Shown in pieces: positions 3,015-50,151 of a stretch of DNA of 64,000 nt. Numbering within the stretch: the first letter of the stretch is position 1; each line of letters opens with the position of its first letter. Under the pieces are notes generated by a model. The model had not been told where the DNA came from and searched no databases. It saw only the letters and a program-made list of their open reading frames with translations. The position numbers were made by a program, and so were the translations under genes. Source of the stretch: a virus; the IMG/VR virus record IMGVR_UViG_3300020000_000010, positions 33,601 to 97,600 of that record, one strand, 5' to 3'.

Positions 3015-5822
3015 ATGGCAGATAAAAGTAAATGTAGAGTAAAGTATAAAAAGAATATTGACGAAGATATTAAGAAATCTATAGTTAAAAATGCTACTTC
3101 GTATAAAGTTGAAGAAGATAAAATTACTATACCTATTGGGGAAAATATAAAAACATTAGAGGCTACTAAATCTGTTGCTCAAAAACTTTCAGAAGAAGTT
3201 AATAATAAATATAATGCTGAAAAATATGGAGAAGTTACCTCTATAGAACCACATGAAGAAGGAACAGATATTAATATTCATATTCCAGATCTTCTATTAG
3301 ATGCTTATGAAGTTAAGTTTAATGAAAGAACTTTACAAGAACTAAGAGAAGCTAGAGAATCTAGTCCTTATAAGAAACAATATGTGTTCTTTACTAGGAG
3401 GTTAAAAGCATTAGAAAAAGATCTAAATAAATTGGATAAAGAATCTATAGAATATGAACAAAAATCTGTAGAAATAGATAATCTTTTAACCCAATTTGAA
3501 AGTGCTGTAGAATCTCAAGAACATGAACAATTTAGAGTTCTAGGAGCAGAAACATTAGATAGAGTAGAAGATTATATAACTAGAGTAGAAAAAGGAGAAC
3601 TTAAACTAACAAGTAAGAGTCTTGAATATTCTGAAGATGTAGCAGATACTTTTTCTGATTTTGAAGATTTATCAGATAGAGTTATTAAACTAAGAAAGAG
3701 ATTATATCCTTATATTAAAGAATTTACCTTAGATAGGATTAATAAATATAAAACAGAGAAAGAGGAGATTACTCAAGAAAAGGTAGATAATCAGAATAAA
3801 GATATAAATACTTTTACTAAAGGAACGGGTACTTTATCTGATTTAGCAAATTATATAGGAAGAACAATAGGACAGATTATTAAAGCTGCTCAAAATAGAG
3901 TTTCTACTAAAAATAAAAAGTTAACAGAAAAGATACAAAAAGAGATAGATCTTCTTTATGAGTATTCTAAGAAGAATAATATTCCTATACAGAATATGTA
4001 TGATATATTTATTCAAGAACATAAAGATACTTTGGTATTAACTAAACCTTTTTTAGATAAAGAAACAGAGAATCCTAATTATAAGAAAATTATAGAAACT
4101 CCTGAATTAAAGAGATTCTATAAATTCTACCAAGATACTATAGAAGAACATGAAAAATCTTTACCTATAAAAATGGGTAGATTCTTTATACCCAATATAA
4201 AGAAAAAGACTACTTTTGGTGTTATTAAATCTCTTATTCCTGTTAAAACTAATAAAGAAGGACAATTTGTGGGAGATGAAAATTTAATGGCTGATATATT
4301 AAATACTCAATATATCAAAAAGATTCCTTCAGATCAAAAATCAAGAGATTTAGGAGCTTCTTTATTACAGTTTGGAGCTTTTGCTAATAACTACGAAGAT
4401 ATGAGCAATATACTTCCTGAAACAAGATTATTACAGAAACAGTTAGAATATAAATATAATTCTGATGGTAAGCAAGTAGAAAGAACTTTTGTTAAATCAG
4501 CTGATCCTAGTAAAAGAGTTAATGGAAAAGAAAGTAATATATATAAGATGGTTGAAGGCTTTATAGAGATGCAGGTCAAAAATAATATGAAGCTTACGGA
4601 AGGTAAAATAAAAGTTGGAAATTTATATGATGAGGAGGGGAATCCTATAGGTGAAAAGTATATAAATGCATCAGATATTGCAGATACTGCCTTAAAATGG
4701 AACTCTTTATTAAGAATTGGATTTTCTCCAATTACAGCATTAAGCAACTGGTTATTTGGAGATGTGTCAAATATAATAGAAGCTGTAGGAGGAAGATTCT
4801 TTAATATAACACAATTACAACAAGCAACTAATATATTTTTTAATCAAAATTTTAATAAAGATTCTACCCTATATAAATGGTTAGAAAAACTTAATCCTTT
4901 AATGGAACTTGAAGATTTTGACCAAGTAGAAAAAGTTAAGTTAAAAACTTTAGAAAATAAAATGTCTCTTGAGAAATTTAAAGAATATTCTTATAGCATG
5001 CAAAAGAGTGGTGAAAAATTCTTACAATCAAGAACTATGCTTGCTGTATTAATAAAAGAAGGATATATTACGCCTAAAGGAGAAACTACTAAAGAAGGAG
5101 ATAATCTATCACAGAAAGAAATAGAGTTGTTAGCGGATAAAATTCAGAGGTTAAACCAAAGTATTCATGGTAGATATTCTAGCCGAGAATCAGCAGTTTT
5201 ACAACAATATACTTTATATAGACTTGTGTCACAATTTCGTAAATGGGTTCCAAGTGCTTTAGAATCAAGGTTTTCCAGTAAACATTTTGACGTGAGATTA
5301 GGTACAGAAATAGAGGGTAGATATGTTACTATGAAAAATCTTATAGTTAATTTATCTGATACTAGAAAAAGACTTTCTGAAGGTAAATTAACAGAATTAG
5401 AAATATATAATCTTAGGAAAACATTAACTGAAATTATATTAATGAGTGCTACATTCTTCTTATATGCTGGAATAAAAGGTTGGGATGATGATGAGAAAAA
5501 GAAAAGACTTAAAAATCCTTATGTTAAAGCAGGACTCTCATTACTAGGAAGAGTTAGTGGAGATATTGAATTCTTTTATAGTCCGGGAGAAGTAGTTAAA
5601 ATAACTTCTAATGCTATCCCTTTATCTAAAACAGTAGGTGATTTATTACAAGCTATTAAGTATTTGCCTGGAGCTTTAGGAGAAAAAGCATACTATAAAA
5701 CAGGAAGTAATAAAGGAAAACATAAATTTATTCATAAACTAGGAAGTGTAGTTCCTTTGGTAAAACCAGTACAAGATATTTTTAGAATAACCTCTGATAA
5801 TATACTTGAAGAACAACGCTAA
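3015..5822 (+). CDS. Large virion/ejection (cargo) protein
   Basis: 935 aa, largely helical, directly downstream of the vRNAP as in crAss-like gene order, with a hydrophobic segment near the C-terminus. Confidence 0.55.
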   Translation: MADKSKCRVKYKKNIDEDIKKSIVKNATSYKVEEDKITIPIGENIKTLEATKSVAQKLSEEVNNKYNAEKYGEVTSIEPHEEGTDINIHIPDLLLDAYEVKFNERTLQELREARESSPYKKQYVFFTRRLKALEKDLNKLDKESIEYEQKSVEIDNLLTQFESAVESQEHEQFRVLGAETLDRVEDYITRVEKGELKLTSKSLEYSEDVADTFSDFEDLSDRVIKLRKRLYPYIKEFTLDRINKYKTEKEEITQEKVDNQNKDINTFTKGTGTLSDLANYIGRTIGQIIKAAQNRVSTKNKKLTEKIQKEIDLLYEYSKKNNIPIQNMYDIFIQEHKDTLVLTKPFLDKETENPNYKKIIETPELKRFYKFYQDTIEEHEKSLPIKMGRFFIPNIKKKTTFGVIKSLIPVKTNKEGQFVGDENLMADILNTQYIKKIPSDQKSRDLGASLLQFGAFANNYEDMSNILPETRLLQKQLEYKYNSDGKQVERTFVKSADPSKRVNGKESNIYKMVEGFIEMQVKNNMKLTEGKIKVGNLYDEEGNPIGEKYINASDIADTALKWNSLLRIGFSPITALSNWLFGDVSNIIEAVGGRFFNITQLQQATNIFFNQNFNKDSTLYKWLEKLNPLMELEDFDQVEKVKLKTLENKMSLEKFKEYSYSMQKSGEKFLQSRTMLAVLIKEGYITPKGETTKEGDNLSQKEIELLADKIQRLNQSIHGRYSSRESAVLQQYTLYRLVSQFRKWVPSALESRFSSKHFDVRLGTEIEGRYVTMKNLIVNLSDTRKRLSEGKLTELEIYNLRKTLTEIILMSATFFLYAGIKGWDDDEKKKRLKNPYVKAGLSLLGRVSGDIEFFYSPGEVVKITSNAIPLSKTVGDLLQAIKYLPGALGEKAYYKTGSNKGKHKFIHKLGSVVPLVKPVQDIFRITSDNILEEQR

Positions 5823-18870: not shown

Positions 18871-19074
18871 TATCTTATTTCAACTAAAAGAACTTCACAT
18901 TCTTCTATTTTATTTTTTATTAAATCACAAATTACAAAAGTTTTATCATTATTTTCTTTCTTCTGAAGTTTTAAGTAAGTATCTTTAATTGCTTTTAAGA
19001 ATACTTTTAAATGATTTTTATAATCGTCTTTTCTTGCTAATATAGGCATTATATTTATTATATAAAAGAGTAGG

Positions 19075-19150
19075 CAGATAGTATAGGAGTCGAACCTATA
19101 TCTTCTAACCCGTGAGATCTAATGCTTTATCCTAATTAAGCTAACTACCC
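19075..19150 (-). tRNA. tRNA-like RNA with a degenerate anticodon arm (best reading CAC), enclosed in an extra 10-bp stem
   Basis: Acceptor GGGTAGT/ACTATCT, D-arm GCTT/AAGC, T-arm ATAGG-TTCGACT-CCTAT. The anticodon stem pairs poorly. Confidence 0.65.
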
Positions 19151-34394: not shown

Positions 34395-34993
34395 TATTCT
34401 TCTAATTTAGTAATTATTTTTTCTAGTAATGGTAGATCTATAGTAAATTTATCTTCAAAACCCCCATTTAAGAATTTTATTTGTCCTTTTTTCATTAAAT
34501 GAAGTAATGTTTTTAATTCAAATAAAGAATATTCAACATTATTAACTTCAATTTTTGAATGATGATAAGGAATTTGTTTTATAAATATAATAGAGGCTTC
34601 TCCAACTCTTATAGGTTCTTTTTCTTTATAAACAGGTTCAAACCAATCCATAATCCCTAATTCTTTAATTTTAGGAAGATAGTAAGAAATCATACCTGCT
34701 ATTATAAAAGGATCATAAGCAGTTTTGTTATATAATTGTAGGGCTTCTATAGCTACTTTTTCATATTCTGGTTTTACCAGTTTATATCCTATAATTTCTT
34801 TTTCCATAGTTTTAAGTTTTTGTTGTTTTTGATATTCTCTTTCTAATTCAACACTTCCTTCTAATATTTCTGTATTAAAAAAATAACTAACTAGATACCA
34901 AGAATAATAATTATTAGAATATTCTTTCCTTATATAATAATTAGAGTTTATTATAAGAACATCTTCTTTTATTAATTTTTTTCTAAAAAACAT
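34394..34993 (-). CDS. Hypothetical protein, apparent fusion of two small genes
   Basis: Internal ...KLKT-M at 34807 carries the shared start motif. Confidence 0.65.
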   Translation of the reverse strand: MFFRKKLIKEDVLIINSNYYIRKEYSNNYYSWYLVSYFFNTEILEGSVELEREYQKQQKLKTMEKEIIGYKLVKPEYEKVAIEALQLYNKTAYDPFIIAGMISYYLPKIKELGIMDWFEPVYKEKEPIRVGEASIIFIKQIPYHHSKIEVNNVEYSLFELKTLLHLMKKGQIKFLNGGFEDKFTIDLPLLEKIITKLEE

Positions 34994-36162
34994 ATTATTT
35001 TTTATTTATATCCTTCTATTATATGATTACAATATTTACATTGTTTTATCCTTATAATAGATATTTTCTTTTTAGTAAACCAATGTAATCCTAGCTTACA
35101 AGTAATATATTGTTGCCAGTTATCTGTATTAAATTTCAGACAAATAAATTCTTTAATCCAAAGGAATATCAATAAACTACTCAATATTCCTACTAAAATA
35201 AATTTATATGATTGTTCCATAGTTTAAGGTTTTTAAATTAATTTTTCACCTATAATATCAAATTTATCATTTAACACTTCTTCATCAGAAATATTTCTTA
35301 GTTGCCATTCTATAATAGCTTCTGTATTTTCTATTTGTTCTTTCATATTTTTATTTTTTTTAAAAGTTATTTGGATATTCTTTTTTTAAAATATTAAAAG
35401 AGGAAATAAAGAAATTAATTAAACTCCAGAGAAATATTGTAATAATCATTGTAAAATACCAATAATGTCTTACACCCCAATCCCAAGATCTGTCTATACC
35501 CATATTATTTATAGGATCTACTAATTTATCTCCAAAAAAGTTTCTTAAATGTTCTGGTAAATAAGAACCAAAAATTCCTATTCCAAATAAAAGCAATATT
35601 CTTAATATTACTCCAAAATATACTTTATTTTTCATTTCTCTAATATTTTAAAGTTTTTAATTTCACAGGCATACTCTCCTTCATAATTATAAGGAGAGTA
35701 TATACAGCCTTTATGTAATACTATATCACAGGGAATATAACATATAGTATCTTTCTCTCCAGAATAGTATTCTACTTCTACATTAAGAAGTTTGGGAGAA
35801 CAAGAAAATATACTAAATATTGATAGTATTAATATTAATTGTTTCATGTTGTTCTTAAATTTGTTATTATTAGTCTTAATTTATTTAAAAAAATAAGAGA
35901 TAAATCTTTAGCTTTTCCAATTCTTGAGGGAATTGTTTCATTTAAACAAGAAAGATCGTATAACATTTCTAATTCTTCTTTAGATTCTATAGATAAACAA
36001 ATAGATATTGGTTTAAATATAGTAGTTTTTTCTGCTAATTCTATTTTCATGTTAGTTATAAGTTAAATATAAGGTTGCTAAAGCTATAAATATACAAAAT
36101 ACTCCTAAACTAAAGGAAATAATAGTATCTTCTAAGTCTTTATTATTCATTTTATACCACAT

Positions 36163-36429
36163 TTATTCTATTGTAATTAGGTTATTTTTAATAATTTCCA
36201 TAAATCTTTTACCTATAATATCTGTTTGTAGGATAGATTCTGTATAGGAACAATTCTTTTTTCTTGCTCTTCCTTCAGCAATAATTCTTCCTTTGGATTT
36301 AATAAATTGATCTTTTAAAGAACATTTAGCAAATCCAATCTTTAATTGTGAATTTTCCACAATTCCTGCATATGTAATGCGGTTTTTACCTTTTTCAGGT
36401 TTAGTATGATGATAATAAGTCTTACTCAT
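36163..36429 (-). CDS. Small basic phage protein with a GxAxCxxxDxFxxxxGxxIAxxRA motif
   Basis: GFAKCSLKDQFIKSKGRIIAEGRA. Confidence 0.7.
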   Translation of the reverse strand: MSKTYYHHTKPEKGKNRITYAGIVENSQLKIGFAKCSLKDQFIKSKGRIIAEGRARKKNCSYTESILQTDIIGKRFMEIIKNNLITIE

Positions 36430-36445
36430 AATTTTTAGTTTTTAA

Positions 36446-36679
36446 TTAGTATCCATATCCATATCCATATCCATTTCCATTTCCATTTCCATTTCCATTT
36501 CCATATCCATTTCCATTTCCATATCCATATCCATATCCATTTCCATATCCATATCCATTTCCATTTCCATTTCCATTTCCATTTCCATATCCATTTCCAT
36601 TTCCATTTCCATATCCATTTCCATTTCCTATATGGTGGCTATCTTCAAAATTTTCGGCAATTTTTAAATTCCTGACCAT
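36446..36679 (-). CDS. Gly-Asn/Gly-Tyr repeat protein
   Basis: ATG at 36679 and about 30 G(N/Y) dipeptides. Confidence 0.65.
   Translation of the reverse strand: MVRNLKIAENFEDSHHIGNGNGYGNGNGNGYGNGNGNGNGNGYGYGNGYGYGYGNGNGYGNGNGNGNGNGYGYGYGY
36450..36627. repeat. Coding hexamer tandem repeat (CCATTT/CCATAT)n
   Basis: Directly visible. Encodes GN/GY on the minus strand. Confidence 0.95.
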
Positions 36680-37017
36680 TTTTCCTCCTTTACAGAAATA
36701 GTATGAATTACTGTTAACCAATCAAACTCAATAACTCCTTCACATTTATCAAGAATTGTAGAATTTGTAGCACCATTAACTAATTCTTGAAGACCTTTTG
36801 TAGTACCCCAAGTTCTAATACAAAAAGCATTTTCAAGTTTACATAAACCTTCTTTGTTTTTAGAAAATCTACCTATATAAACCCATCCTCGTTGTAAAAC
36901 TACAATTTTAATATCTCCAGAATAATTAGGAGATTTGTTCATAAGATTTTCCGGAAGATATGTTTTTCCATTAACTACTACTTTTCCGTCTGTTATTAAT
37001 ATACTTTCTTTTGACAT
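36664..37017 (-). CDS. Conserved phage protein (DUF6948-like)
   Basis: IVVLQRGWVYIG...LENAFCIRTWGTTKGLQEL..G, a family usually found next to GxGxG repeat proteins. Confidence 0.65.
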   Translation of the reverse strand: MSKESILITDGKVVVNGKTYLPENLMNKSPNYSGDIKIVVLQRGWVYIGRFSKNKEGLCKLENAFCIRTWGTTKGLQELVNGATNSTILDKCEGVIEFDWLTVIHTISVKEEKWSGI

Positions 37018-37227
37018 TTTTATTAGTTTTTTTATTATTTAAATTTTAAAGATTTTAATTATTTTTTTTGATAAAATATTAATTTTCTTTTTAATTCTGT
37101 TATTTCTTCTCTTTGCTCTTTTACTACAGAAATTAGATTATTTATTTTTTCTCCTAGTAAAACTAAAGGTTCTAGACATATTTTAGGCCCAGTAATATTT
37201 AGAATTTTTTCTGTGATCTTTATCATT

Positions 37228-37599
37228 TTATAAATATCTTTTTATATAGCTTGCGATATAATTAAAGGATTTTCCTTTATCATTAAGTCTTGATAATTTA
37301 TCATTAATAGTTTGAGATATATCATCTAATCCTCTTAGTAAAGAAGGAAGTGCTTTTGAATCATTATTTTGTAAGTCTTGTGGTAATTCTCTATCATATA
37401 GTATACTTTTATTTATTTTTACAATAGCACAAGCAACTCCTAAACAACAATATTCTTCTTTACTATTATAATTACATAAAAGATAATCTTCTCCTTGTTT
37501 ATATTTTCCGCTTTTAAGAGCTTTTATCCATTTGTTTTTAAACATTTTAGGAAGCCTATAATCTTTTAATTTATTTGTTTTTGGATTTATTATTTTCAT
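37228..37599 (-). CDS. Conserved phage hypothetical protein
   Basis: WIKALKSGKYKQG, CCLGVAC, LND...SF..IA..I. Confidence 0.7.
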   Translation of the reverse strand: MKIINPKTNKLKDYRLPKMFKNKWIKALKSGKYKQGEDYLLCNYNSKEEYCCLGVACAIVKINKSILYDRELPQDLQNNDSKALPSLLRGLDDISQTINDKLSRLNDKGKSFNYIASYIKRYL

Positions 37600-38702
37600 T
37601 TGATTAATATTATTATCCCTTCATATACATGTTGAATATTCTGTAAACTCTTCAACTTAAGTCTATAAGTATAAATACTTTGTTGATCATTATATCCAGA
37701 CCATAATTCATCTCTGTTTTGAGTATGGAATATAACTTGCCCTGCTCTATTAAATACCTCTAACTCATATTCTTTAATACCAAATATAATAGGTAAGAAA
37801 TAATCATTTAAAGCATCTCCATTAGGTGTAAATGCATTAGGTATATAAAGATATATACATTGGCACTCAGAAGGAGCAGATTCAATATTTATAGGTTCTA
37901 TTACAAATACTTTAACTATATTATTACAAGACTCTTTACCATTAGTATAAGTTACTGTATATTGATTATCTCTGGTAGGTGCTACAGTTATATAATAGTT
38001 TGATTTTGAGGGATTTGTGTTCCAAGAATATTTATATCCCGGAATATCTAGTACTAAAGAAATATCATCTATTCCCCAAGTATCAAATCCTACACCATCA
38101 GAATCTTTTTGAATCCATCTAATCTTAGTATGATTAGTTAATGCTTCTTCTGGAATATCTATACAATATTTATTCCAATTGGTTAATATACTATCCATAC
38201 CTCCTTTAGGATCATAGTATTCTATTGTGTTCCAAGAAGTTGTAAAGTATTCTAAGTAAATTCCTTCTGTATTCTTTTCTATACCTTCACAAGGATCATG
38301 AGGATCTCCATTAGCTTTTTGTAATCCATACTTCATTCTAAAGCATAAAGTAGCTTTTGTAGCACCATTCTTTGTTAAATCTAAAGGTTTTGATTCTATG
38401 TATCTAGGATTATCAATACTATTGTTCATAAATAGATAATGTTTCCCTTCAGGACTTAATCCAAAACAAGGATAATTAGAAGTATCAGCTATAGTAGCAT
38501 TAGAGCTAGTTTCTAGTAAAGGATCTATAATACCATTATTAAAATTAATGAATAAAGGTTTTATAGTATCCTTATAAGCAGATAATAACACAGAATCTCC
38601 ACAATATATTGTAATAGAGCTATCTTTTACATGAACTGGACATTGTGTATATCCAGATAGAAAAGATAGCTGTAATAGAAGAATTAATATGTATTTTTTC
38701 AT
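37596..38702 (-). CDS. Secreted protein with a Reelin-like domain and a T9SS type B sorting domain (CHU_C/gliding motility-associated CTD)
   Basis: Signal peptide MKKYILILLLQLSFLSGYTQ; EGIYLEY..W..IPEEALTNHTKIRWIQ..DTWGIDDI; C-terminal YIPNAFTPNGDALNDYF..VFNRAGQVIF..W.G..YTYRL. Confidence 0.85.
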   Translation of the reverse strand: MKKYILILLLQLSFLSGYTQCPVHVKDSSITIYCGDSVLLSAYKDTIKPLFINFNNGIIDPLLETSSNATIADTSNYPCFGLSPEGKHYLFMNNSIDNPRYIESKPLDLTKNGATKATLCFRMKYGLQKANGDPHDPCEGIEKNTEGIYLEYFTTSWNTIEYYDPKGGMDSILTNWNKYCIDIPEEALTNHTKIRWIQKDSDGVGFDTWGIDDISLVLDIPGYKYSWNTNPSKSNYYITVAPTRDNQYTVTYTNGKESCNNIVKVFVIEPINIESAPSECQCIYLYIPNAFTPNGDALNDYFLPIIFGIKEYELEVFNRAGQVIFHTQNRDELWSGYNDQQSIYTYRLKLKSLQNIQHVYEGIIILIK

Positions 38703-40586
38703 ATTATTTTGTTTTTCTAGATTATTCTGTAATAATATTTTCCATTATTTTATTATAAATCCAACTTTTTAATCCTATATTTGTTTTATTAGTAAGATCT
38801 ATAACTAAAATATTATTGTTAATATCGGGCAATCTTCTTACTAAAGTCATTAAACCTATTTCAAGAACATTATGTGCTAAAATGATAATTTCTTCAGAAT
38901 CATATTTAGATTTAATAATAGTATATTTTATTTCTTCTTTTTCCATATCTAAAAATATAATCTCTCATTACTAATTGGTTTATTTGAAAGATAGGTGAGA
39001 TATTTTCCTATTTCTTCAAAACTTTTACATCTTAAACAAGCAATAAAAGCAATTTTTGTTTCTATAATAGAATCTTTTGAAATAATCATAGTATTGATTT
39101 CTTCATACATAAAATCAAAAAGATCAAAATTATTTTCATATTTATCCATTAATTGATCAAACATATCATCTTTTAGGATGTTAAGTTCTTTGGCTATATT
39201 TAATAACCATTTAACTTTTCCTAGTTTATCTGTTGGTTTGGTTATTATTTCCATAGTTTTAGGTTTTAACGTTTTTCGCAAATTTCTTCTAAAGTATCAT
39301 AATAAAAGATAACAGTATTGGCTTTATTATCAATAAAACAAACAATACTTCCCATTAACCATTTTATAGTAACAGTAGTTCCTTCTTCAAAAAAACCATA
39401 TTCGTCTTTTATTTCTGTAAGTAAAACTACAGAATCTTTCTGTTTTAAATATTTTCTTCTTTCTTTTGTTTTAATATAAGCCATAGTTTTAGGTTTTTAA
39501 GTTAGAATTTGCTCTTTCATAAGCTTTTTGTTTATCTTCTTGTGCTTTAATTCTATTTTTTTCAATTTTTTCTCTTCCATTATTATAAATTTTTGTTTGT
39601 TCTTTTTCAAATTCCTTTATTTTTTCATAGGAGGAGAATTTTTGTTTTTCATGATCAAAATTACCATTTCCTAGTTTATGATTAATTTCTCCCCAAGTCC
39701 AATTTTCACCTCCAAATAAAGGACTACTTGCAGCACAAACACTTTTCCAAGTAAAGCCTCCATTAATAGAATATCTATATCTAATATAATCGCTTGAAAA
39801 CAAAGCAGGTTCTATTTTTAATATAAATTCATTACTTTTTGGAAATATTGGTTTCTTACTATGATATTTATATAGGATTATCCCAATAATTAATAATATA
39901 AAATAAATCATTTGTTTAAGTTTTAGGAATATGATTAACTCTAATAGTTTTAATTTCTTTTAAAGAAGAAACATAAAGATCTTTTCTATCGTGAAATATT
40001 TGATGGATAATTTCTCTTTTAATATCATCTTCTGTAATTTCATATCTATCTGTTACTTTTGTAATAAAAATTTCTCCTTTAGTAGGAAACATAGTATTTT
40101 CAGAATCAACATGTTTTACTACATATTTATATAATTTTTTCATATTTTTATTTCTTTTATGTTTACATTAATTGAGTTGTCTAAAAACATTGAAGTAAAC
40201 CAGGGATTTTTTGTTATTTTTAAAGATTTTTTAATTTCTTTATTTGTTCCTATACTAATTAATATACGGTCTAATAATTTTCCAAAAAATGTTTCTCCTC
40301 CTTCTAAAGTATTAGCTTCAATATATTGTCCTCTTGTTTGAGAATTTAAATCTTTTTTTAAAGAGTTTATCTCATATTTTCCTAATTTGTTTAAATCAAT
40401 ATCTATAATTAGTCTAAATTTTTTCATAGTTTTAAAATTTAATTATTGTAGGGTTTGTTTTATCGTTTATTGAAAGAACATAATATCCAAAATTATTTTT
40501 ATAAAATAGATATAACTTATGTCTTTTAGCATATTTAAACCATTTTATAAATTCTTTCATTGTTTTAAGTTTTAAGGATTTAAAAT

Positions 40587-40616
40587 AAAGGGAATAAGAT
40601 TTCTCCTATTCCCTTT
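40587..40616. terminator. Hairpin terminator after 40628-41164
   Basis: AAAGGGAATA...TATTCCCTTT, with a T-rich tail on the minus strand. Confidence 0.8.
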
Positions 40617-40627
40617 TTATTACTTAA

Positions 40628-41164
40628 TTATGCTTGTATAGCAGCAGCTAAAGGAGCAGCAGCAGCAACTTCTTCAAGTTGTGCTTTAGCTTCATTTAGA
40701 GGCACTAAAGCAGTATGAGCAAGGAAAGTGTGTTTAGCTTCTCCAAGTACAATAGTACTATTAGAAAAGATAAATCCATTTGCATTACGCAAATACTGAG
40801 TTACACCATCTTTATTAACATATTGCTTAGCACTAGCTAAAGCATTAGCTTTTTGATATTCTGAAGGAGTATTGGTTTCAGTAATTTGAACACTCAAAGC
40901 CAATCCTTCAATCATAGGATTTTCAATAGAAACTTCTACAGGAGATCCTACTTTAATATCTTTACAAGAGATAGCAAAATATTTTTCAATCTGAGAAGGT
41001 TCTGCTACCATCCAAGCTTTTCTAGCTTTAGCTTGATTAAACCTATCATCTCCTACATTTAGAAGAGCCAATAGATTTGTAGTTTTACCAACTACTTGTG
41101 AGATTTCAATTTCATACTTTCCACCTTTTACTGCCCTTACACGGGTTAATGTTGCATTTTTCAT
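40628..41164 (-). CDS. Hypothetical protein, probably highly expressed
   Basis: 178 aa, Ala-rich, with its own terminator and a long structured region upstream. Confidence 0.75.
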   Translation of the reverse strand: MKNATLTRVRAVKGGKYEIEISQVVGKTTNLLALLNVGDDRFNQAKARKAWMVAEPSQIEKYFAISCKDIKVGSPVEVSIENPMIEGLALSVQITETNTPSEYQKANALASAKQYVNKDGVTQYLRNANGFIFSNSTIVLGEAKHTFLAHTALVPLNEAKAQLEEVAAAAPLAAAIQA

Positions 41165-41216
41165 GTTAATTTGTATTATTTATTATGTTATTTTCATTTT
41201 ATTTTGGCTAAAATGA

Positions 41217-41411
41217 GATTCCTTAGCATCTTTGATTGCTATAAACATACTTTCTCTTCAAGATATGTTTTATGAGGGCTTAGAACCTCTCTATAGGTTT
41301 AGAACTTTCTTTTATTAACTATAGAGCCTTTTAGAGGGAGGAATATTTCCCCAACTACCCTCCTCCCAATGGTAGCAACTTAAAACCCTTAACTTTAGGC
41401 GTTAAGGAACC
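41217..41411 (-). ncRNA. Putative ~195-nt structured RNA with an H-type pseudoknot
   Basis: Closing stem GGTTCCTTA/TAAGGAATC. A CTACC/GGTAG stem has loop GGGAGGA that pairs with TCCTCCC. Also CTCTATAG/CTATAGAG and further hairpins. Confidence 0.55.
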
Positions 41412-42102
41412 GTAGGTTATTCAAAATATTTATCATACATTATTTCTCCTAATATATAACAAATAATTAATGGAGAAAATAAATATATAATAAATATTTT
41501 AATACTGTTAAGTTCTTCTTTTTCTTTGTCTATACAACTAATAAAACCTAGTCCTATTAGATATAAAATTATTATTTCTATCATAATTCAAGTTTTAATT
41601 GGTTTTTAATAGCTTCTTTAACACTAGGAAATAAATTAATAATTCTATTTCCCATTTTATTCCTATAGTTTATCTCTTGGTTTAAACACTTAATCCAAGT
41701 ATCTTTTGGATAGGCTCCAAAAGTATTTTTATTAGATCTCTTTATAATCCCTATAATATGATATATATGAGGAGTAGAAAGTTCTTCAATCTTTTTTGGT
41801 TGCTTATTTAAAGGCTTCCAATACATTTCTGTTCTTTGTTTTTCATATAGATTCATAAGATTTGGGGTTTTAGTTATTTATAGATTCTTTAAATAAAAAT
41901 TCATAAGTTTTATATCCTATTGTCATAGATGTTACAATTGGAGAAAATAATATACAAAAAAACCATAAAATTAATTCAGGTTCTTTATTAGTATCTTCTT
42001 GATAATGTAATAACATTCTAGAACAGAATCCTATACATATGAAATATACAATAGTTATTAAAAAAGGTATCATTTTTTAAGTTTTAAAAGGTTAATAATT
42101 AA

Positions 42103-42213
42103 AAAGAATATTAAATACTATTTCTAGGAATCGAACCTAAATAGAAACCATATAACATTAAATTACAAGTAATTATTGTAGTTATTATTCTTAAACAATA
42201 TCTAATATTCTTT
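42103..42213 (-). ncRNA. tRNA-like RNA: T-arm inside a 21-bp closing stem
   Basis: 21-bp stem with three G-U pairs on the minus strand, TAGG-TTCGATT-CCTA, and TACAA-7nt-TTGTA. Confidence 0.6.
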
Positions 42214-42217
42214 GTAC

Positions 42218-42370
42218 TAGTTCTAATGAGACTCAAACTCATGCCCTCCTATTTTCTTCAAGTTTTCACAATAGGTTCTTGACTAATCAATCTACTATTG
42301 TAGTTAACGTCTTTTTGTATACTATTTAATGAAGTAGGTGCTCTACCAACAAAAACTGAGCTATAGAACT
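42218..42370 (-). tRNA. tRNA(CAT)-like gene with a ~74-nt insertion in the anticodon loop
   Basis: Acceptor AGTTCTA/TAGAACT, D GCTC/GAGC, CCTAC-TT-CAT, insert, AA-ATAGG, variable AGGGC, T-arm ATGAG-TTTGAGT-CTCAT. Confidence 0.7.
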
Positions 42371-42689
42371 TATGGGTTTACTTTTCATCTTTATTTATTT
42401 TATAACAGAAATATAAAAATCCTATTATAATAATTGTACTAGAAACTATATCTAGTATTTGTTTTGCTAGTAATAATTTTATGAAATTCATTATTTTATG
42501 GTTTTAATTAGTTATAATAATCCTTCTCTTTGCTTTCTTTCATGTTTATCATTAAGAAAATTACCAAAGCTATTTGTATCATCCATACTTTCTGTACCTA
42601 TAAAATCATCCTTTTTTATATTTTTTGATTTTAAAGTTTTGCTTTTATCAGGTTTCTTTTTAATTTTCATTATTTTAAGTTTTAGTTAG

Positions 42690-42765
42690 TACCCCAGGTA
42701 GGATTCAAACCTACATATGTTCAGTTATGCACCTTCTGTTTAGAAAACAGGGCCAATACAAGGGC
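42690..42765 (-). tRNA. Non-canonical tRNA-Arg(TCT) lacking a D-arm
   Basis: Acceptor GCCCTTG/CTGGGGT, anticodon arm CTGT-TTTCTAA-ACAG, ~20-nt variable region, T-arm GTAGG-TTTGAAT-CCTAC. Confidence 0.65.
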
Positions 42766-44663
42766 ATATAGATTTAAAAACCCCTATCTTACTATTAATT
42801 CAAATAGAGGTTTAATATAAAAAATGTATTATTGGGTATTATCACCTAATGTCTTCTTTCATAGAAAGATATTTTTTTTGCTTCCGCTTCTAAACTAAAT
42901 ACATTTTTATTGTAAGCCTTTTACGTTATTTCTTACAGGAAGGTTATTTACTATTACCTACAAAAGTTTCTCTTAAGAACTAAAAGAATATTTCAACTGA
43001 CGATAGACTTTTCTACCTTTAGTTGAAGTTCTATTATTTCTCCTATATTCTATTTCAATCTCTCCTTTTATATTAATAAAAGTATTTTCATTTCTTAACC
43101 TTCTATTAAAGAAAGTATTATTATGAAAAGGGTTTTCTTTGGTTATAGGATTTAATAGAATAGGTTTACCATAATTAGGATTAGACATATCTAAATCCAT
43201 ATCAAATTGTTTTACATAGGGCTGGTTTTTCATAGTTTTAAGTTATTATTTGGTTAGTAATATCTATTTGTTCTAAAATATCTGATTTCTTATAACAAAT
43301 TTGAGATTTTCCAGATTTTCCAAAATATGTTCTTATTTTGTAAATTCTAAATCCTTCTTTAATTAGTTTTAATAGTTCTGAATATTCTATGTGTCTATAG
43401 ATTTGGGTTACTCTTTTAAAAGCACAGAAATCATCTAAATTATGTATATAATCTGGTATATCATAATGAGGAGTTTCTAATTTATTACAACATTTTGTAG
43501 TATTTGTTATTCTTTTGTGTTTCTCTGAATAGAAAATCCCCAATCCATCTGAATCTTCTATTCTATATATCCACATACTGTTTAAGTTTTAAGTTTAAAT
43601 ACAACTATTAAGACTAATATCAAAGATATAAATATAGTTACACAATTAAGAATTATTAATACCAAAGATAAATCTTTTGAAGAATTATCCATATTATTAA
43701 CAACTGTTTCTTTAGTATCTATATAATATATGTTGTTTTTATCATTCTCTTTAGCTTGATTTAAGGTACATTGATTAGAAGTATCTCTTTGGTGTAAAGT
43801 ATCTTGATAAGTGATATTTGGAGGTTTTTCTTGGTATTTCTGACAACTAGTTAATCCTGATAATATAGACAATATTAACATAATTAAAAAGAAGAATTTT
43901 ATAGGGTTTTTCATGGTTAATTAAGTTAATTTGGTTTTATATTTTGTTATTATATAATCTCTAATTCCAAATAGAATTAATAATAGTAAAATATATTCTG
44001 GTTCTATTTGGATTATCATGGTTATTATGGTTTTAACTATTTCTTATTAGTGATTTTTGATATTCGTTTTCAAGGTTATCAATATACCCTACATATTCTT
44101 CAACAAGAGACATATCCCATCTATACCATTTAAAAGAAAGATCATTAAATTCCTCTCTATTATAATAACAATTCTCATTTATCAATAAAACAGTTTCTAG
44201 TTTTGTTCTTATTTTCATGGTTATTGTTTTTTAAAGGTTATTATATCTCCTATATTATATTTACCACAAGTATCTATAATATGTGACTTCATTGGTAGTA
44301 ATACATCATTAAAATTTGTATATTTACAATATCCTTTTCCAAGATCTTCAATATCTGTTATTTTTAAACTAATTGAAGGTATTCTAGTACAGCTATTTAA
44401 TCCAATTAGGATAGATAGTATTAAAATTAGTTTTTTCATGGTTTTATAGATTTTGTATATTTTAAAGATTAAAAAGTTCCAATAGCCATATATGTTAAAA
44501 TAAACATTTGGGAAATATCCATTAATAAATGGTTTTTTCATAGTTTTAAATTGATTTCTTAATAAGTATTAGAGGCTTCTATATATTCCAATAGATATTT
44601 TATTACCTCTAATACTAGTACAACAAACGGCTATTTGTGTATTATTACCTAATACTAGGCTAA

Positions 44664-45056
44664 TGGTGGAGGTGGTGGCATATGCTAGCCACGTTATTCC
44701 ATAATAAGTAATAGTGTTCTACAAGTTTAGTATTTAGATTTCTCCTAATACAGGATAATTACTATTAGTAGTAATCACTCTATCTGCTATAATTTTAATT
44801 CTTCCCAGATAACTAGAATTTTCCTAAATTTAGTTAAGCTAATACTAAATCTGCTTTAGGAGCAGTTACTGATTTAACAGTTTTAACAGAGCTTGATGGT
44901 TTTACAACCCAATTAGAACAGTCTGCTACTGTACCTACTTCGTTGGTTATTACACATTTGTCATTTATGACTTTGAATACATAGATTAATGAGATAGTAT
45001 ACATCTCTCAACTTGCTTGTTATTAATTATATATAGAATGCTTACTGTTCACCCCC
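44664..45056 (-). ncRNA. ssrA: tmRNA (393 nt)
   Basis: 5' GGGGGTG pairs with CACCTCC-A-CCA and gives G3-U. GCAAG/CTTGT helix within TAAACTTGTAGAA, ATAAAT-GAC resume context, and an open tag frame 44962-44834 ending LVLA-stop. Confidence 0.9.
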
Positions 45057-45267
45057 ATATATTATTGTAACCAATATTTAAATAGTAGTTTTCCTTCTAA
45101 ATATATTGATTGTGTATTGTTTAATTGGTTGTAAACTATTAGTTTCATAGTATTTTAAGTTTGGGTTTAAACAAGTATTGATAGATAGATAGTAACTCTA
45201 CTTTTTACGCCTCTAAACTTAGGATACAATCTAAGATTTATTTCAAGGATCTATCAATACTATATTA

Positions 45268-45909
45268 TTAATTAAGATTTTCTTCAATCCATTTATCACG
45301 ATCTTTATTATTATATTCCATTCTAGCATATTTACTAAAGGATTTACATAATAATTTAACAACTTCATTTCTTGAATAATCTTTAAATTGTCTTATTATA
45401 ACTGTATTATCTTCTCTTGTTTTGAGTTTGTAAATATCAGGGGCTTCACAAATTCCTATACAATTACAACTTAAGCCTTTAGACTTTAAACAATCAATCT
45501 TATCAGTTTCTTCCCACTCTAATTGAACTTCAGTAATAGGATTATCTTCATTATAGGCTTTTATGTAAGCTTTAATAAATGATTCAGGAATTGATGGTAA
45601 TTCTAATGAGTTATCTGTTGAAGCTATTATTTTACCCATATTACCAGTCCAACTAAAATCTCCTTTTTTATAAATAAATCCAGATGTATTTTGTTTAATT
45701 TCTATGATATAATTTTTATTATCTTTATACATCCAATCTCCTTCTTTAATTTCATCATTAGATAAAATATAAAGTTCATAATATTGACAATCATTATAAC
45801 TTATATTGCTTTCTGAATTAAAAATTAGTTTACTTTGTTTCCATTCAGTAAACATCTTTGCTTTTCTATTATTAGTAGGAAGCATGATAATTTTATTTGT
45901 TGTTATCAT
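45268..45909 (-). CDS. Conserved Bacteroidota-phage hypothetical protein
   Basis: LYILSNDEIKEGDW, KIIASTD, LPSIPESFIKAYI. Confidence 0.7.
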   Translation of the reverse strand: MITTNKIIMLPTNNRKAKMFTEWKQSKLIFNSESNISYNDCQYYELYILSNDEIKEGDWMYKDNKNYIIEIKQNTSGFIYKKGDFSWTGNMGKIIASTDNSLELPSIPESFIKAYIKAYNEDNPITEVQLEWEETDKIDCLKSKGLSCNCIGICEAPDIYKLKTREDNTVIIRQFKDYSRNEVVKLLCKSFSKYARMEYNNKDRDKWIEENLN

Positions 45910-46565
45910 TGTGAGTGTTTTAAGTTAATAATTAAGATCTCTTCTGGTTTTAATTTTATTCCACTTGGTTTATTAAACAAATAACCACATTTAATACACC
46001 AAGTAATACCAAAAGTATTATCTCTTAGTTTATGTTTATCTGGTTTACAAGTTTCCATGTGTTTGGGATTTAAAAAGATAACTAAAAGAAATAGTAAAGT
46101 GTTAGCAGAGTTATCACTCTTTATGTATACTAATATAATACTATTTGTTGAACTATTATACTACCGTTCGAGTATTCTATAGTTATATTATTTAATCAAA
46201 TTCTTTAATGCCCAATATTCAGGATTTATAAATTTGGTTATAGTATCTTCTATACTCATTAAAGAAACTAGTAGAAATATTAACCATAATATAAATAAGG
46301 CTATCATTATTATTTCTGTTCCATCATCTTCAAAATATTTAGTGTATTCTTTATTATAACCATATTCTTTTTTACTAAATTGTTTATGATATTTATAAAG
46401 AATAACTCCAGAGATAATTACTATTAAATAGTAAAATAAATCTGTAATAGCACTTATTTGTGCTTGTTTAATCAAAATACTCCACAAGTATTCTGCTTTT
46501 GTACCAAGTTTGTTGGTAATTTCTCTTAAAAAAGAGATAATTTGGGTTTCCATAAGTTTTAGGTT

Positions 46566-47213
46566 TTAAAATTGTTTGTTTATAAAATCAATAATTATAT
46601 TTATTAATTGTTGATTTTTTTGGTTTTTAGCAGCAGCATCAGCAGCAGCAGCATCAGCAGCATAAGCAGCAGCAGCATCAGCAGCATAAGCAGCATAAGC
46701 AGCAGCATCAGCAGCATAAGCAGCAGCAGCAGCAGCATAAGCAGCAGCATAAGCAGCATCAGCAGCATCAGCAGCATAAGCAGCATCAGCAGTATCAGCA
46801 GCAGCATCAGCAGCATCAGCAGCATAAGCAGCATCAGCAGTATCAGCAGCAGCATCAGCAGCATCAGCAGCAGCTCTTCTAAATTCTAATAATTTTTCTT
46901 TTGTTATAGGATTATTATTAAAATCTTTAATTGCTTTTATACAATCTTTTACTCTATTATCAGAAGGATATCTTTCATTGTAAATATGAGAAACATTTTC
47001 TGCTAATAAATAAGATAATTCTTTTTTTTGATCTAAAGTTAAATCTGATTTTTTAAATAAAAACCAAATTTTATCTTTTGTAGGCATTTCTGAATTTATT
47101 ATATCTAATATAGTAATTTCAGTATTATTAATGAAAGATAAAGAATTAACTTGATTTATATCATAGCATCCTTTATTATCAATAATATATTTCTTTGTGA
47201 ATTCTTTTTTCAT
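46566..47213 (-). CDS. Protein with an Ala/Asp/Tyr low-complexity repeat
   Basis: Globular N-terminus (YPSDNRVKDCI), then (AADAAY)n. Confidence 0.75.
   Translation of the reverse strand: MKKEFTKKYIIDNKGCYDINQVNSLSFINNTEITILDIINSEMPTKDKIWFLFKKSDLTLDQKKELSYLLAENVSHIYNERYPSDNRVKDCIKAIKDFNNNPITKEKLLEFRRAAADAADAAADTADAAYAADAADAAADTADAAYAADAADAAYAAAYAAAAAAYAADAAAYAAYAADAAAAYAADAAAADAAAKNQKNQQLINIIIDFINKQF
46629..46874. repeat. Coding GCA-rich tandem repeat
   Basis: GCAGCATCA/GCAGCATAA units, which read A/D/Y on the minus strand. Confidence 0.95.
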
Positions 47214-49021
47214 TGTTTTAAGGTTATTTGGGTTTATATTAAGTTTTAATAGTAATTAGATTTCTAATCCTTATTACTACTAGAAAATAGATATTATAGA
47301 ACATTAGTCTATATATATCTATTCTATCTAACAGGCTACTTCAATAGCTGCTACCTATTTATAAGATTTGAAGATCTTATTTATCAGGGTTTTACTAGAG
47401 TTTTATGTATATTTACTTTCTTCTCTCAGAAACACCGTTTACACCACTTTATAATAACCTTTGTTAATTAAAAATAAAGCCTTCCCAACTAGTATATAAC
47501 CGCGTTAGCACTTGGTACAACTAGAGGAAGACTTATGTTGTTAAATGAATATTTGTGATATTGGATATAAATGAGTTGAAAAATTATCATCTGTTATAAC
47601 CCATAAAGCTATTGTTTCTGGTTCAGAATAATCTTCATTCTCAAATCTTCTTCTAAATGATATAGTATTATCAAGAGTTCTATTCTCAAATATACGAGTT
47701 TTTTCATTTTTTATTATACCATTAATAGAGTTATTATCTCTATCTTTGATAATACAAGTTGTACCATGAAAATTACTATGTATATATTCAATTAAATCTC
47801 TTTCAATTTGATTACATTTATATACAAACTCAAATCTATCTGATTGATGATAACCTTCTATTTTACTAAGCATTTGCTTAATAATATTATGACAGTTATC
47901 ATTCTTGTTCAAAAAGCTATTTAGTTTGCTATTACCATTATATTCTTCAATTAGTTCTTTGGTTTGTTTATTTATTAGCTCTTCAATAGACTTCATGGGA
48001 TTAAGTTTTAAGTTGGTTTATGATTGGGGATTAATTAAAGAATTCATCAACAAAATCCCAGAGTTCTTCTAGGGATTCAATAGAATAATTATATTTGGAC
48101 ATTTGATTAAAAATTTGTGGTTAATATTTATAAAAAGAACATTCTGCTAAGGTTTATATTAATTGCAACTCACTCACCATACATATAATATAAAGAGCTT
48201 AGTCTAAAAGAATGTTCTTAATTAGCTATCAAATAAGATGCTGATAGTTTTTAGGTTTTTGGGAAAATTGAGATTGTTGGGTGGAGGTTCTAGGTTACTG
48301 ATTACCAATACTTTAACCAAATATATAAATATAACAATTTCTGGATCTTTACCAGCCTTCTATTATACTAAGCCTCTTATTTAAAAGTCAGCAAGAGTTT
48401 TTTACTTTATTGTTATATTTAATACTTTAGTAACCATTTCCATCAAAATAATCTCTTTCAAGATCATAATCTGATTGTTCTTTCTTCTGTTTCTTTCTTT
48501 CCAAATGCTTATCTATTTCATTGAAAGCCCAAACAGCAGCAAAAGGAAATAGTATAAATAGTGCTTTCATATTTAGTATTTTAATTGTTAAAAACTATCA
48601 TCTCCATCATCAAAGTTGGAGAGAAATCTGTATACTCCATAGATTATTAAGGATAGGCATAATCCAGGAATAGTAATGTATAAAAGTGTTATCATTTTTG
48701 TTGGTTTTAAGTTGGTTAATAAATAATAGAACAAAGGATTAACCATGATTATTGAGAAAACAATTAATCCAGTGTCCTATTAATCTTCCTATGAAGAAGA
48801 TCTTTAATTCAAATAATACCAAATAGTCTCCAAAGAATCTGTATACAAACTCCTACAAGGATCAGGATCTACTTGATTGTGTTTAAACCCTTTAAAAGGA
48901 TAAGTATCAGAGTTATAGTTCTTTTCTATCTCTATTTTCTGGTTTCTAGCCTCTATTAATACTTTAATGAGATCTAGGTTAGGTTCTTGGTTTAACATAG
49001 TTTAGGTTTTAAATAATAGTT

Positions 49022-49055
49022 AAAACAAAGAACTAGCCCCGAAGGACTAGCTCTT
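49022..49055 (-). terminator. Strong intrinsic terminator with a C(UUCG)G loop
   Basis: Minus strand AAGAGCTAGTCC-TTCG-GGGCTAGTTCTT-TGTTTT. Confidence 0.88.
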
Positions 49056-49065
49056 AGAATTAGAA

Positions 49066-49380
49066 TTAAGACATACTGAAAGTAGGAGTGATGCCCTTAG
49101 AAATAAGGTGATCCATAATCTCCATAGTAGAGTGCTTCTTAACAATCTGCTTACCACAACCAAGGAAGTTATTACCATCCTTCTGAAGTATTCCTTCAGT
49201 CTTGTCCTTCTTAACATATTTATCACCAGCTTTCTTTGATTCATAACAGATAATCTCTGCATTAGTATCAAATTGTGATTTTGGTGCCCAAACAGTAGCT
49301 CCAGACATTGTTGTAACAATATACTGTTCTTTACCATCAACAGTTACAAGTTTCCAAGAAGCAATAATTTCGTTTTTCAT
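49066..49380 (-). CDS. First gene of the leftward block, small beta-rich hypothetical protein
   Basis: 104 aa with its own terminator. Confidence 0.75.
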   Translation of the reverse strand: MKNEIIASWKLVTVDGKEQYIVTTMSGATVWAPKSQFDTNAEIICYESKKAGDKYVKKDKTEGILQKDGNNFLGCGKQIVKKHSTMEIMDHLISKGITPTFSMS

Positions 49381-49506
49381 GTTAGTTTGTTTTAAGTTAG
49401 TATTTTACTGGAGGGGTATTTTCCAGCTCAGTTATTGGGTGGGGTGGTTTTTTTAAGCAAGAGACTGATTATCAACACACTAAAGTTTAAAAAAATATGA
49501 AAAAAA

Positions 49507-49560: not shown

Positions 49561-50151
49561 ATGATAAAATATTACATTTATGCATTATGTGAACCAGAAA
49601 CAGAAGTAATTAGGTATATAGGGCAGACCAGACAAACTCTTAAACAGAGATATAAGAATCATATAAGCAGTTCTAAAACAGAAAAACTATATAAAGCCTA
49701 TTGGATTAAAAAACTACTGTCTAATGGAGAAAAACCAACATTAATGGTATTAGATATACTATACGTAGATAATATATCTAAAGAAAATCAACTATTTATA
49801 GATAAATGGGAATATTTCTATATTCAAAAATATAAAAAATTAACAAGGTTAACAAACGATAGGGAAATAGAAGGCTTTAGAAAGACTAAAAGAGAAACAA
49901 GAGGTAATTCAAGAAAAACAATGTTAAAAATATCTAAAGAGAAAGGTTGGTGTAAGTCTATAAAACTCAGACACATAGAAACAGGAGAGATCTTTGAATT
50001 TGCTTCTGTAAGAGAAGCATGGAAGACTTTGGGTATGAGAGAAGAACAATTAAGATTGTTAAGAAAAGGTTGGAATATGGTTAAACAATCAGGAAAACTA
50101 TATAAAAAGATAATAAAACAATGTAAAGGATATGAAATAGTTATAGATTAG
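49561..50151 (+). CDS. Free-standing GIY-YIG endonuclease with a NUMOD1-like C-terminus
   Basis: YIYAL...RYIGQT...RYKNH...E, and TGEIFEFASVREAWKTLG. Confidence 0.88.
   Translation: MIKYYIYALCEPETEVIRYIGQTRQTLKQRYKNHISSSKTEKLYKAYWIKKLLSNGEKPTLMVLDILYVDNISKENQLFIDKWEYFYIQKYKKLTRLTNDREIEGFRKTKRETRGNSRKTMLKISKEKGWCKSIKLRHIETGEIFEFASVREAWKTLGMREEQLRLLRKGWNMVKQSGKLYKKIIKQCKGYEIVID

Follow-up and report, generated by a model that had tools for sequence, protein, structure and literature searches.

A cluster of remodelled tRNA-family RNAs with a tmRNA-like gene in the early region of a crAss-like phage

We analysed a cluster of four RNA genes of the transfer RNA (tRNA) family on a 64,000-nucleotide stretch of viral DNA (below, the window), which corresponds to bases 33601-97600 of the 97.6-kb virus record IMGVR_UViG_3300020000_000010, a record rated complete. 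The cluster comprises a gene resembling transfer-messenger RNA (tmRNA), a tRNA-like RNA without D arm, a tRNA body carrying an insert, and an RNA in which a T arm is closed by a helix of 21 bp. An earlier note on this DNA had reported four non-canonical tRNA-family RNAs within 3 kb, and all four are indeed present and encoded on the minus strand.

Matches to PHROG families typical of the crAss-like group were obtained for the terminase, portal and major head protein of this phage. Among cultured phages, Cellulophaga phage phi14:2 (Crassvirales, Steigviridae) matches best, with a terminase identity of 36%. The G+C content of the genome is approximately 25%. An alternative genetic code was rejected, since read-through of TAG or TGA barely alters the lengths of the open reading frames (ORFs); the standard code fits. 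From about 5.9 kb to 49.4 kb of the window the genes are carried by the minus strand. The cluster sits in a block of small early-type ORFs, approximately 8-11 kb upstream of the PolB gene, and its four elements have the same orientation as the flanking early ORFs.

For the tmRNA-like gene the following features were found:

44664..45056, minus strand: one-piece tmRNA-like gene, 393 nt (RF00023 alignment and minimum free energy (MFE) fold)
45050-45056, minus strand: acceptor, 5′ strand
45012-45039 with 44696-44725, minus strand: helix 2
44975-45011, minus strand: pseudoknot 1 (PK1) region
44834..44962, minus strand: candidate tag frame of 42 codons, ending in ...ADLVLA (RF00023 alignment and ORF list)
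44675-44692, minus strand: T arm with an 8-nt loop, UAGCAUAU
44668-44674, minus strand: acceptor, 3′ strand
44664-44667, minus strand: encoded ACCA (read directly)

The tmRNA model RF00023 covers this gene from end to end (model positions 1-374) with 29.7 bits and an E value of 2.2e-9. In the unconstrained MFE fold the 7-bp acceptor, the T arm and the long helix 2 all appear (z-score −3.29), and helix 2 is recovered in the RF00023 alignment as well. Direct reading of the ends revealed an alanine-type acceptor, with a 7-bp stem containing G3-U70, a discriminator A and CCA. There is a PK1 hairpin, with a second stem of just 4 bp that was read by eye. The candidate tag frame begins with the model-aligned resume codon GAC (44960-44962) and is open up to a UAA (44834-44836). 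An open frame as long as 42 codons was obtained in 200 of 3000 dinucleotide shuffles (6.7%), and the tag length of 42 codons is therefore not proven. ARAGORN at a relaxed threshold takes only the final 9 codons as the tag, and a search with the tag peptide against phages gave no match. Judged by its sequence the tmRNA is probably functional, with an altered elbow as a caveat.

The DNA on both sides of the tmRNA gene contains repeats. Immediately downstream of its 3′ end two direct copies of a 16-18-nt word (TATTACCT..AATACTAG, plus strand) lie 25 nt apart at 44600-44660. A perfect 13-bp inverted repeat around 62 nt is located between the upstream ORF and the gene (45174-45261). A mini-ORF of 28 codons (about 45066-45155) stops 7 nt before the 5′ end.

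The next element is a tRNA-like RNA that has lost its D arm:

42690..42765, minus strand: D-arm-less tRNA-like RNA, 76 nt (RF00005, T-arm scan and fold)
42759-42765 with 42691-42697, minus strand: acceptor, with one U-U and two G-U pairs
42735-42751, minus strand: anticodon-like hairpin (UCU), loop UUUCUAA
42715-42734, minus strand: variable region, 20 nt
42698-42714, minus strand: T arm, loop UUUGAAU

Four nucleotides occupy the place of its D arm, instead of about 15. The third element is a tRNA body with a remodelled anticodon arm:

42218..42370, minus strand: tRNA body with remodelled anticodon arm, 153 nt (direct reading, constrained fold, T-arm/acceptor scan)
42364-42370 with 42219-42225, minus strand: acceptor, 7 of 7 positions paired
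42340-42361, minus strand: D arm, 4/4 stem pairs, 14-nt loop containing GG
42248-42338, minus strand: 91-nt arm, with a CAU at 42329-42331 that is partly paired
42226-42242, minus strand: T arm, 5/5 stem pairs, loop UUUGAGU

The acceptor, D and T arms together have 16 stem pairs, every one of them Watson-Crick, and an arm of 91 nt is found in place of the 17-nt anticodon arm. The fold constrained to this shape has −27.1 kcal/mol, compared with −28.3 kcal/mol for the MFE fold. A permissive Rfam search reports nothing at 42218-42370. ARAGORN did not call the gene at default settings, with the intron option or after any of 660 trial deletions; only at relaxed thresholds are there calls in this region, and their boundaries differ. 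A group I intron was considered and rejected, as the insert has about 85-91 nt and such introns usually have at least 200 nt, and no intron family was matched at E values up to 10.

The fourth element starts only 4 nt beyond the insert-bearing gene:

42101..42213, minus strand: T-arm-bearing RNA, 113 nt (fold z-score −4.51)
42193-42213 with 42103-42123, minus strand: closing helix of 21 bp, 18 Watson-Crick and 3 G-U pairs
42124-42140, minus strand: T arm with the canonical loop UUCGAUU, abutting the 3′ strand of the helix

The helix contains no mismatch, its G-U pairs can form only on the minus-strand RNA, and it is followed by a run of U. Rfam gave no match to this RNA, and ARAGORN no call at its default threshold. 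Across the cluster the acceptor and T stems have been kept paired while the D and anticodon parts are altered, as the earlier note had observed.

Whether such elements could arise by chance was examined with a scan of the whole genome for a strict T-arm motif (5-bp stem, G53-C61 closure, loop TTYRANN). The 97.6-kb genome contains four such motifs, compared with 0.94 in shuffled sequences, and each of the four is on the minus strand. Three of them are located within 600 nt in the cluster. The cluster is therefore real and derived from tRNAs, which bears out the assignment to the tRNA family in the earlier note. In addition, a permissive Rfam search of the region from 41.5 to 45.6 kb yielded two minus-strand matches, to tmRNA at 44664-45056 and to tRNA at 42690-42765. 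Searches with each element and with the insert (blastn-short) against the genome and all loci revealed no repeats and no copies.

The fourth strict T arm belongs to a tRNA gene outside the cluster:

19073..19150, minus strand: tRNA-Val(CAC) (ARAGORN; Rfam 43.8 bits)

In the whole genome no other tRNA is called by standard tools; ARAGORN at default settings and Rfam at gathering thresholds agree on this gene. The earlier statement that the window contains no ordinary tRNA was thus too strong. The anticodon stem of tRNA-Val(CAC) is irregular, with six rows of which one is A-A and three are G-U, and GTG makes up only 3.5% of the Val codons of the phage. AGA is the dominant Arg codon and ATA the dominant Ile codon, which makes genes with UCU and CAU plausible ancestors of the cluster RNAs. 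Nearly all tRNA-family genes of this phage are remodelled, and the combination of these with a tmRNA with rebuilt elbow is the unusual part.

Within 9-30 nt downstream of each of the four RNAs lie the early-gene start motif AACTTAAAA and a start codon. The motif occurs 16 times compared with 6.9 expected, and 12 of these copies directly precede start codons on the minus strand of the early region (34810-49398). It is also repeated ahead of g005 in phi14:2. The motif could be a promoter of early genes or a signal for the start of translation, and its position together with a start codon after each RNA fits with the RNAs setting mRNA ends. A promoter motif common to the regions upstream of the RNAs was not found; scans for sigma-70 and terminator consensus sequences are uninformative in this A+T-rich DNA.

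Counterparts of the cluster RNAs are present in cultured phages. The earlier note had named canonical versions of the RNAs in relatives as an observation that would speak against it, and the cultured relative phi14:2 carries none. In the whole genome of phi14:2 ARAGORN calls no tRNA and one tmRNA (4031-4500), and the phage has a non-decoding, covarying RNA in addition. Its tmRNA (L091:4031-4502, NC_021806) has an Rfam score of 46 bits (E 2.6e-16) and lies between g005 and g006; RefSeq annotates no RNA there. The g004-g005 and g005-g006 junctions of phi14:2 are reported to be transcribed above most genes, early and stably, and the transcripts were named long non-coding RNAs of unknown function (Drobysheva et al., bioRxiv 10.1101/2020.03.07.982082). 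One further strict T arm of phi14:2, at 1826, is part of a 91-nt cloverleaf (L091:1760-1850) in which a closed hairpin replaces the anticodon loop, and which is unannotated and missed by ARAGORN. A copy of this cloverleaf (91-92 nt) was identified in an unannotated gap of Maribacter phage Panino (L101:3498-3589). Between the two phages 8 of 25 pairs are changed on both sides and none on one side only; 98% of the cells pair, and slid controls gave 0-1. These compensatory changes show that structural selection maintains tRNA-shaped RNAs without decoding capacity in the phages of this host group. When a covariance model built from the phi14:2/Panino RNA was run on the window and on 85 loci, it detected no homologue, only a weak generic match to tRNA-Val.

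Flavobacterium phage FpV4 also encodes a tmRNA (L094:2959-3373, NC_041872; 58 bits), which is unannotated, missed by ARAGORN and located inside a 2.3-kb gap free of coding sequences. The T stem of this tmRNA has a closing A-U pair, and in the acceptor stem it does not differ from the tmRNA of the window. For Cellulophaga phage Calle_1 a tmRNA has been annotated (PMC8776804). In phi14:2, FpV4 and Calle_1 the frames from the model-aligned resume codon are open for 30-38 codons:

L091:4114-4227, L094:3049-3153 and L095:2089-2178: tag frames of the comparator tmRNAs

The three tags have a common GNxTxN start and an (E/K)ANM core, so long tags appear to be conserved at the peptide level in Flavobacteriia phages. 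The candidate tag of the window tmRNA has only the length and the hydrophobic end in common with them and lacks both GNxTxN and EANM.

The search was extended to 1.3 Mb of IMG/VR sequence, in 80 loci that surround related PolB genes. They contain 53 strict T arms compared with about 13 in shuffled sequences, and 24 acceptor closures compared with about 3. Fifteen canonical tRNAs were found in these loci, together with tRNA frames with inserts of 30-110 nt (for instance L087, L089 and L063); T arms that ARAGORN leaves uncalled close here into insert-bearing tRNA-shaped RNAs. A custom scan of the 80 loci for tmRNA-type ends detected none except that of this phage itself.

Close relatives were sought in several collections. 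With the 3.2-kb stretch, blastn found no match among 50,697 phage records. Protein-anchored and pattern scans of IMG/VR yielded only one chance coding match or distant phages of 43-45% G+C. A scan of JGI metagenomes with the T arm of the insert-bearing gene gave only unrelated or chance matches. In a set of 5.8 billion proteins a neighbouring protein of 178 amino acids found only itself; the best relative of PolB there is 50% identical and located on a 2-kb contig. Other PolB relatives are 37-40% identical. The phage itself was recovered in soil and freshwater DNA runs of five studies. All of these contigs are 100% identical, and they thus provide no variants for a covariation analysis.

We consider it about an even call that the cluster is an RNA island in the early region of a Bacteroidota crAss-like phage, consisting of a working tmRNA and three tRNA-shaped stable RNAs that do not decode. 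RNase P, RNase Z and the CCA-adding enzyme recognise the acceptor/T half of tRNAs. Non-decoding, processed stable RNAs are ranked first because the half recognised by these enzymes has been kept and the parts needed by the ribosome have been lost. The tmRNA would be charged with alanine by the host AlaRS and would work with host SmpB in trans-translation during infection, adding a phage-specific and probably long tag; SmpB was not found in a search of the phage genome. Two of the three tRNA-derived RNAs probably descend from genes for tRNA-Arg(UCU) and tRNA-Met/Ile(CAU). All three keep the acceptor/T-arm "top half" without a usable D arm or anticodon loop and would not decode. Instead, the top halves might serve as handles for host RNase P, RNase Z and CCA-adding enzyme, which would cut the RNAs from early transcripts and in doing so define the ends of the small mRNAs next to them. 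The unit would be closed by the 21-bp hairpin and its U-run. The analysis shows the genes with their shapes, strand and clustering, as well as selected and expressed counterparts in related phages; charging, use of SmpB, processing and the absence of decoding are deduced.

Several observations weigh against this interpretation. The score of the tmRNA (29.7 bits) is below the gathering threshold of RF00023, which is 47, and ARAGORN at default settings does not call the gene. Its T stem has 5 bp, yet the loop has 8 nt (UAGCAUAU) and no UUCGA, and the D-loop GG is lost, the 5′ region reading CAG compared with UGG in the three comparator phages. T loop and D-loop GG form the elbow contacted by SmpB and the ribosome, and for this reason the tmRNA may be impaired. 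The 76-nt RNA reaches 26.1 bits with RF00005 (E 0.024; gathering threshold 29) and has a U-U mismatch in its acceptor stem. A hairpin with a U-run is located directly upstream of it, which would fit separate transcription units better than a simple punctuation of one transcript. For both middle RNAs (42690-42765 and 42218-42370) the fold z-score is about 0, no better than in shuffled sequences, and in the 113-nt RNA the fold with a T arm lies 3.6 kcal/mol above the MFE. Among the sequencing runs listed as containing the cluster stretch there is no RNA run. No near relative that could show covariation or conservation of the four genes themselves was found in any collection searched.

Part of these data would also be expected if the three tRNA-like elements were dying genes in a genome of 25% G+C, next to a tmRNA that may work and with the 21-bp hairpin as a mere terminator. 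Such decay is the main rival, and we regard it as unlikely. It would account for the sub-threshold or absent Rfam and ARAGORN calls, for the U-U in one acceptor stem and a U56 in two T loops, for the z-scores near 0 of the two middle RNAs and for a sole callable tRNA that reads a hardly used codon. The insert is moreover flanked at both ends by the short direct repeat AAAUAG, as an insertion event would leave. However, the stems are flawless where mismatches would be expected (16/16 pairs in the insert-bearing gene, 21/21 in the hairpin), and all elements have retained the same half of the tRNA. Comparable non-decoding shapes are under compensatory selection in related phages, and the sequence is 100% identical across the runs of five studies, though this identity holds little information on age. 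Decay is weakened by the flawless stems and by the pattern common to the elements.

A further explanation, which agrees with the proposal of the earlier note and which we think improbable, is a counter-defence kit: the RNAs would be decoys for tRNA-targeting nucleases or toxins, or nuclease-proof adaptors, and ribosomes that stall after tRNA cleavage would be cleared by the tmRNA. The co-located tmRNA, the UCU and CAU identities, which match the most used Arg and Ile codons of the phage, and the maintenance of non-canonical shapes in relatives are in line with this. It has been proposed that phage tRNAs evade anticodon nucleases by means of altered anticodon loops (eLife 2023, PMC10264068). 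Yet a free anticodon loop is missing from two of the three RNAs, which would be neither lookalikes of nuclease targets nor usable adaptors. The genome also contains no RNA repair enzyme (RtcB and T4-type RNA ligase were searched for and not found), and no defence-related neighbour was found around the cluster. A tRNA without D arm is, furthermore, not known to work on bacterial ribosomes. From the translation-rescue kit of the earlier note, the rescue part agrees with the tmRNA, but nothing links the four RNAs into one system. Working decoders are less probable still. Here the 153-nt gene would be an intron-bearing tRNA-Met/Ile2 and the 76-nt gene an odd tRNA-Arg(UCU), serving the heavily used ATA and AGA codons; the intact acceptor, D and T frame of the 153-nt gene would agree with this, and unexplained introns in tRNAs of Bacteroidota phages provide a precedent (PMC6784885). 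However, a group I intron would need a longer insert, no Rfam intron is matched, position 37 would be a pyrimidine, none of the 660 trial excisions was accepted by ARAGORN as a tRNA, and the 76-nt RNA has no D arm. Neither a splicing endonuclease nor an RNA ligase was found in the phage, and the archaeal-type enzyme does not occur in bacteria. Least likely by far are partial tRNA and tmRNA copies that served as attP of a temperate phage. Genes for tRNA and tmRNA are common integration sites, of which phages then carry the 3′ parts (PMC11590407). Both acceptor strands are present in all elements of the cluster, which are thus more than 3′ fragments, and the tmRNA extends over its full length. 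No integrase was seen among the ORFs that were inspected, and a lytic crAss-like organisation is the norm.

The region around the cluster contains further features. The ORFs between the RNAs matched no Pfam family. In the ORF at 46566-47213 (minus strand) the C-terminal half contains a long low-complexity Ala/Asp/Tyr repeat. At the strand switch, the N-terminus of the ORF at 49561-50151 (plus strand) resembles a GIY-YIG homing endonuclease by eye; its PHROG match is weak. The 250 nt at 41165-41416 (minus strand) are free of ORFs, relatively G+C-rich and contain several hairpins, with a fold z-score of only −1.6; a terminator-like stem with a U-run is located within this stretch at 41386-41408.

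Going beyond the RNA island of tmRNA and non-decoding stable RNAs, one could speculate that a lineage of crAss-like phages with Flavobacteriia-type hosts gave up decoding tRNAs, and that the mimics together with the tmRNA with rebuilt elbow act jointly on the tRNA-handling and ribosome-rescue machinery of the host. They might for example titrate RNase P, RNase Z, the CCA-adding enzyme, SmpB or a tRNA-directed defence nuclease, and re-tag stalled host proteins with a long phage tag. We give this idea little credence at present. Non-decoding tRNA-like RNAs of phages have been seen for decades without an assigned function, and phage tmRNAs have been annotated and not understood; the phage analysed here appears to carry almost solely remodelled RNAs of this kind. 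A tractable link is provided by phi14:2, where the unannotated tmRNA coincides in part with one of two early stretches of highly expressed long non-coding RNA. With its host it is a cultured crAss-like system in which the role of tRNA shells and the translation of long tags can be addressed.

Comparison with known systems shows both common and distinct properties. Like SsrA (RF00023) the window tmRNA has G3-U70, a discriminator A, CCA, helix 2, a PK1-like hairpin and a candidate tag frame with a hydrophobic end followed by UAA. Like the tmRNA of phi14:2 it is located in the early region upstream of PolB. A standard T loop and a D-loop GG are retained in the three comparator tmRNAs, whereas the window tmRNA has lost the two. 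Phages of the mycobacteriophage Bxz1 group also carry tmRNA copies. Small stable RNAs of unknown function are encoded in the tRNA regions of phages T4 (rnaC and rnaD) and T5 (RNA1 and RNA2). These belong to other phage groups and hosts and are likened to the cluster by description only. Animal mitochondria have three-armed tRNAs without D arm, which depend on specialised mitochondrial factors; the 76-nt RNA has the same three-armed shape, and to our knowledge no bacterial or phage example of a D-arm-less tRNA has been established. The anticodon-loop variants proposed to evade nucleases would be otherwise canonical decoders whose anticodon loop departs from that of the host tRNA at nuclease contact sites, whereas none of the three tRNA-like RNAs of the cluster is canonical.

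Phage tmRNAs as such were already known (PMC4131195), and tmRNA is present in about 2.3% of phage genomes (PMC9004378). The tRNAs of Lak megaphages contain "enigmatic introns" (Devoto et al. 2019, PMC6784885). In common with the 153-nt gene they are found in Bacteroidota phages of approximately 26% G+C and have short inserts of no known intron class in the anticodon region. Unlike this gene they are called in the eukaryote mode of tRNAscan and some have insert-free alleles, whereas here no excision is callable and no allele is known. The RNA of phi14:2 and Panino differs from the cluster elements in its covariation support and has no sequence homology to them. What it has in common with the cluster is its occurrence in phages of Flavobacteriia hosts, its location in the early region, and a structure in which the acceptor, D and T arms are kept and the anticodon loop is closed.

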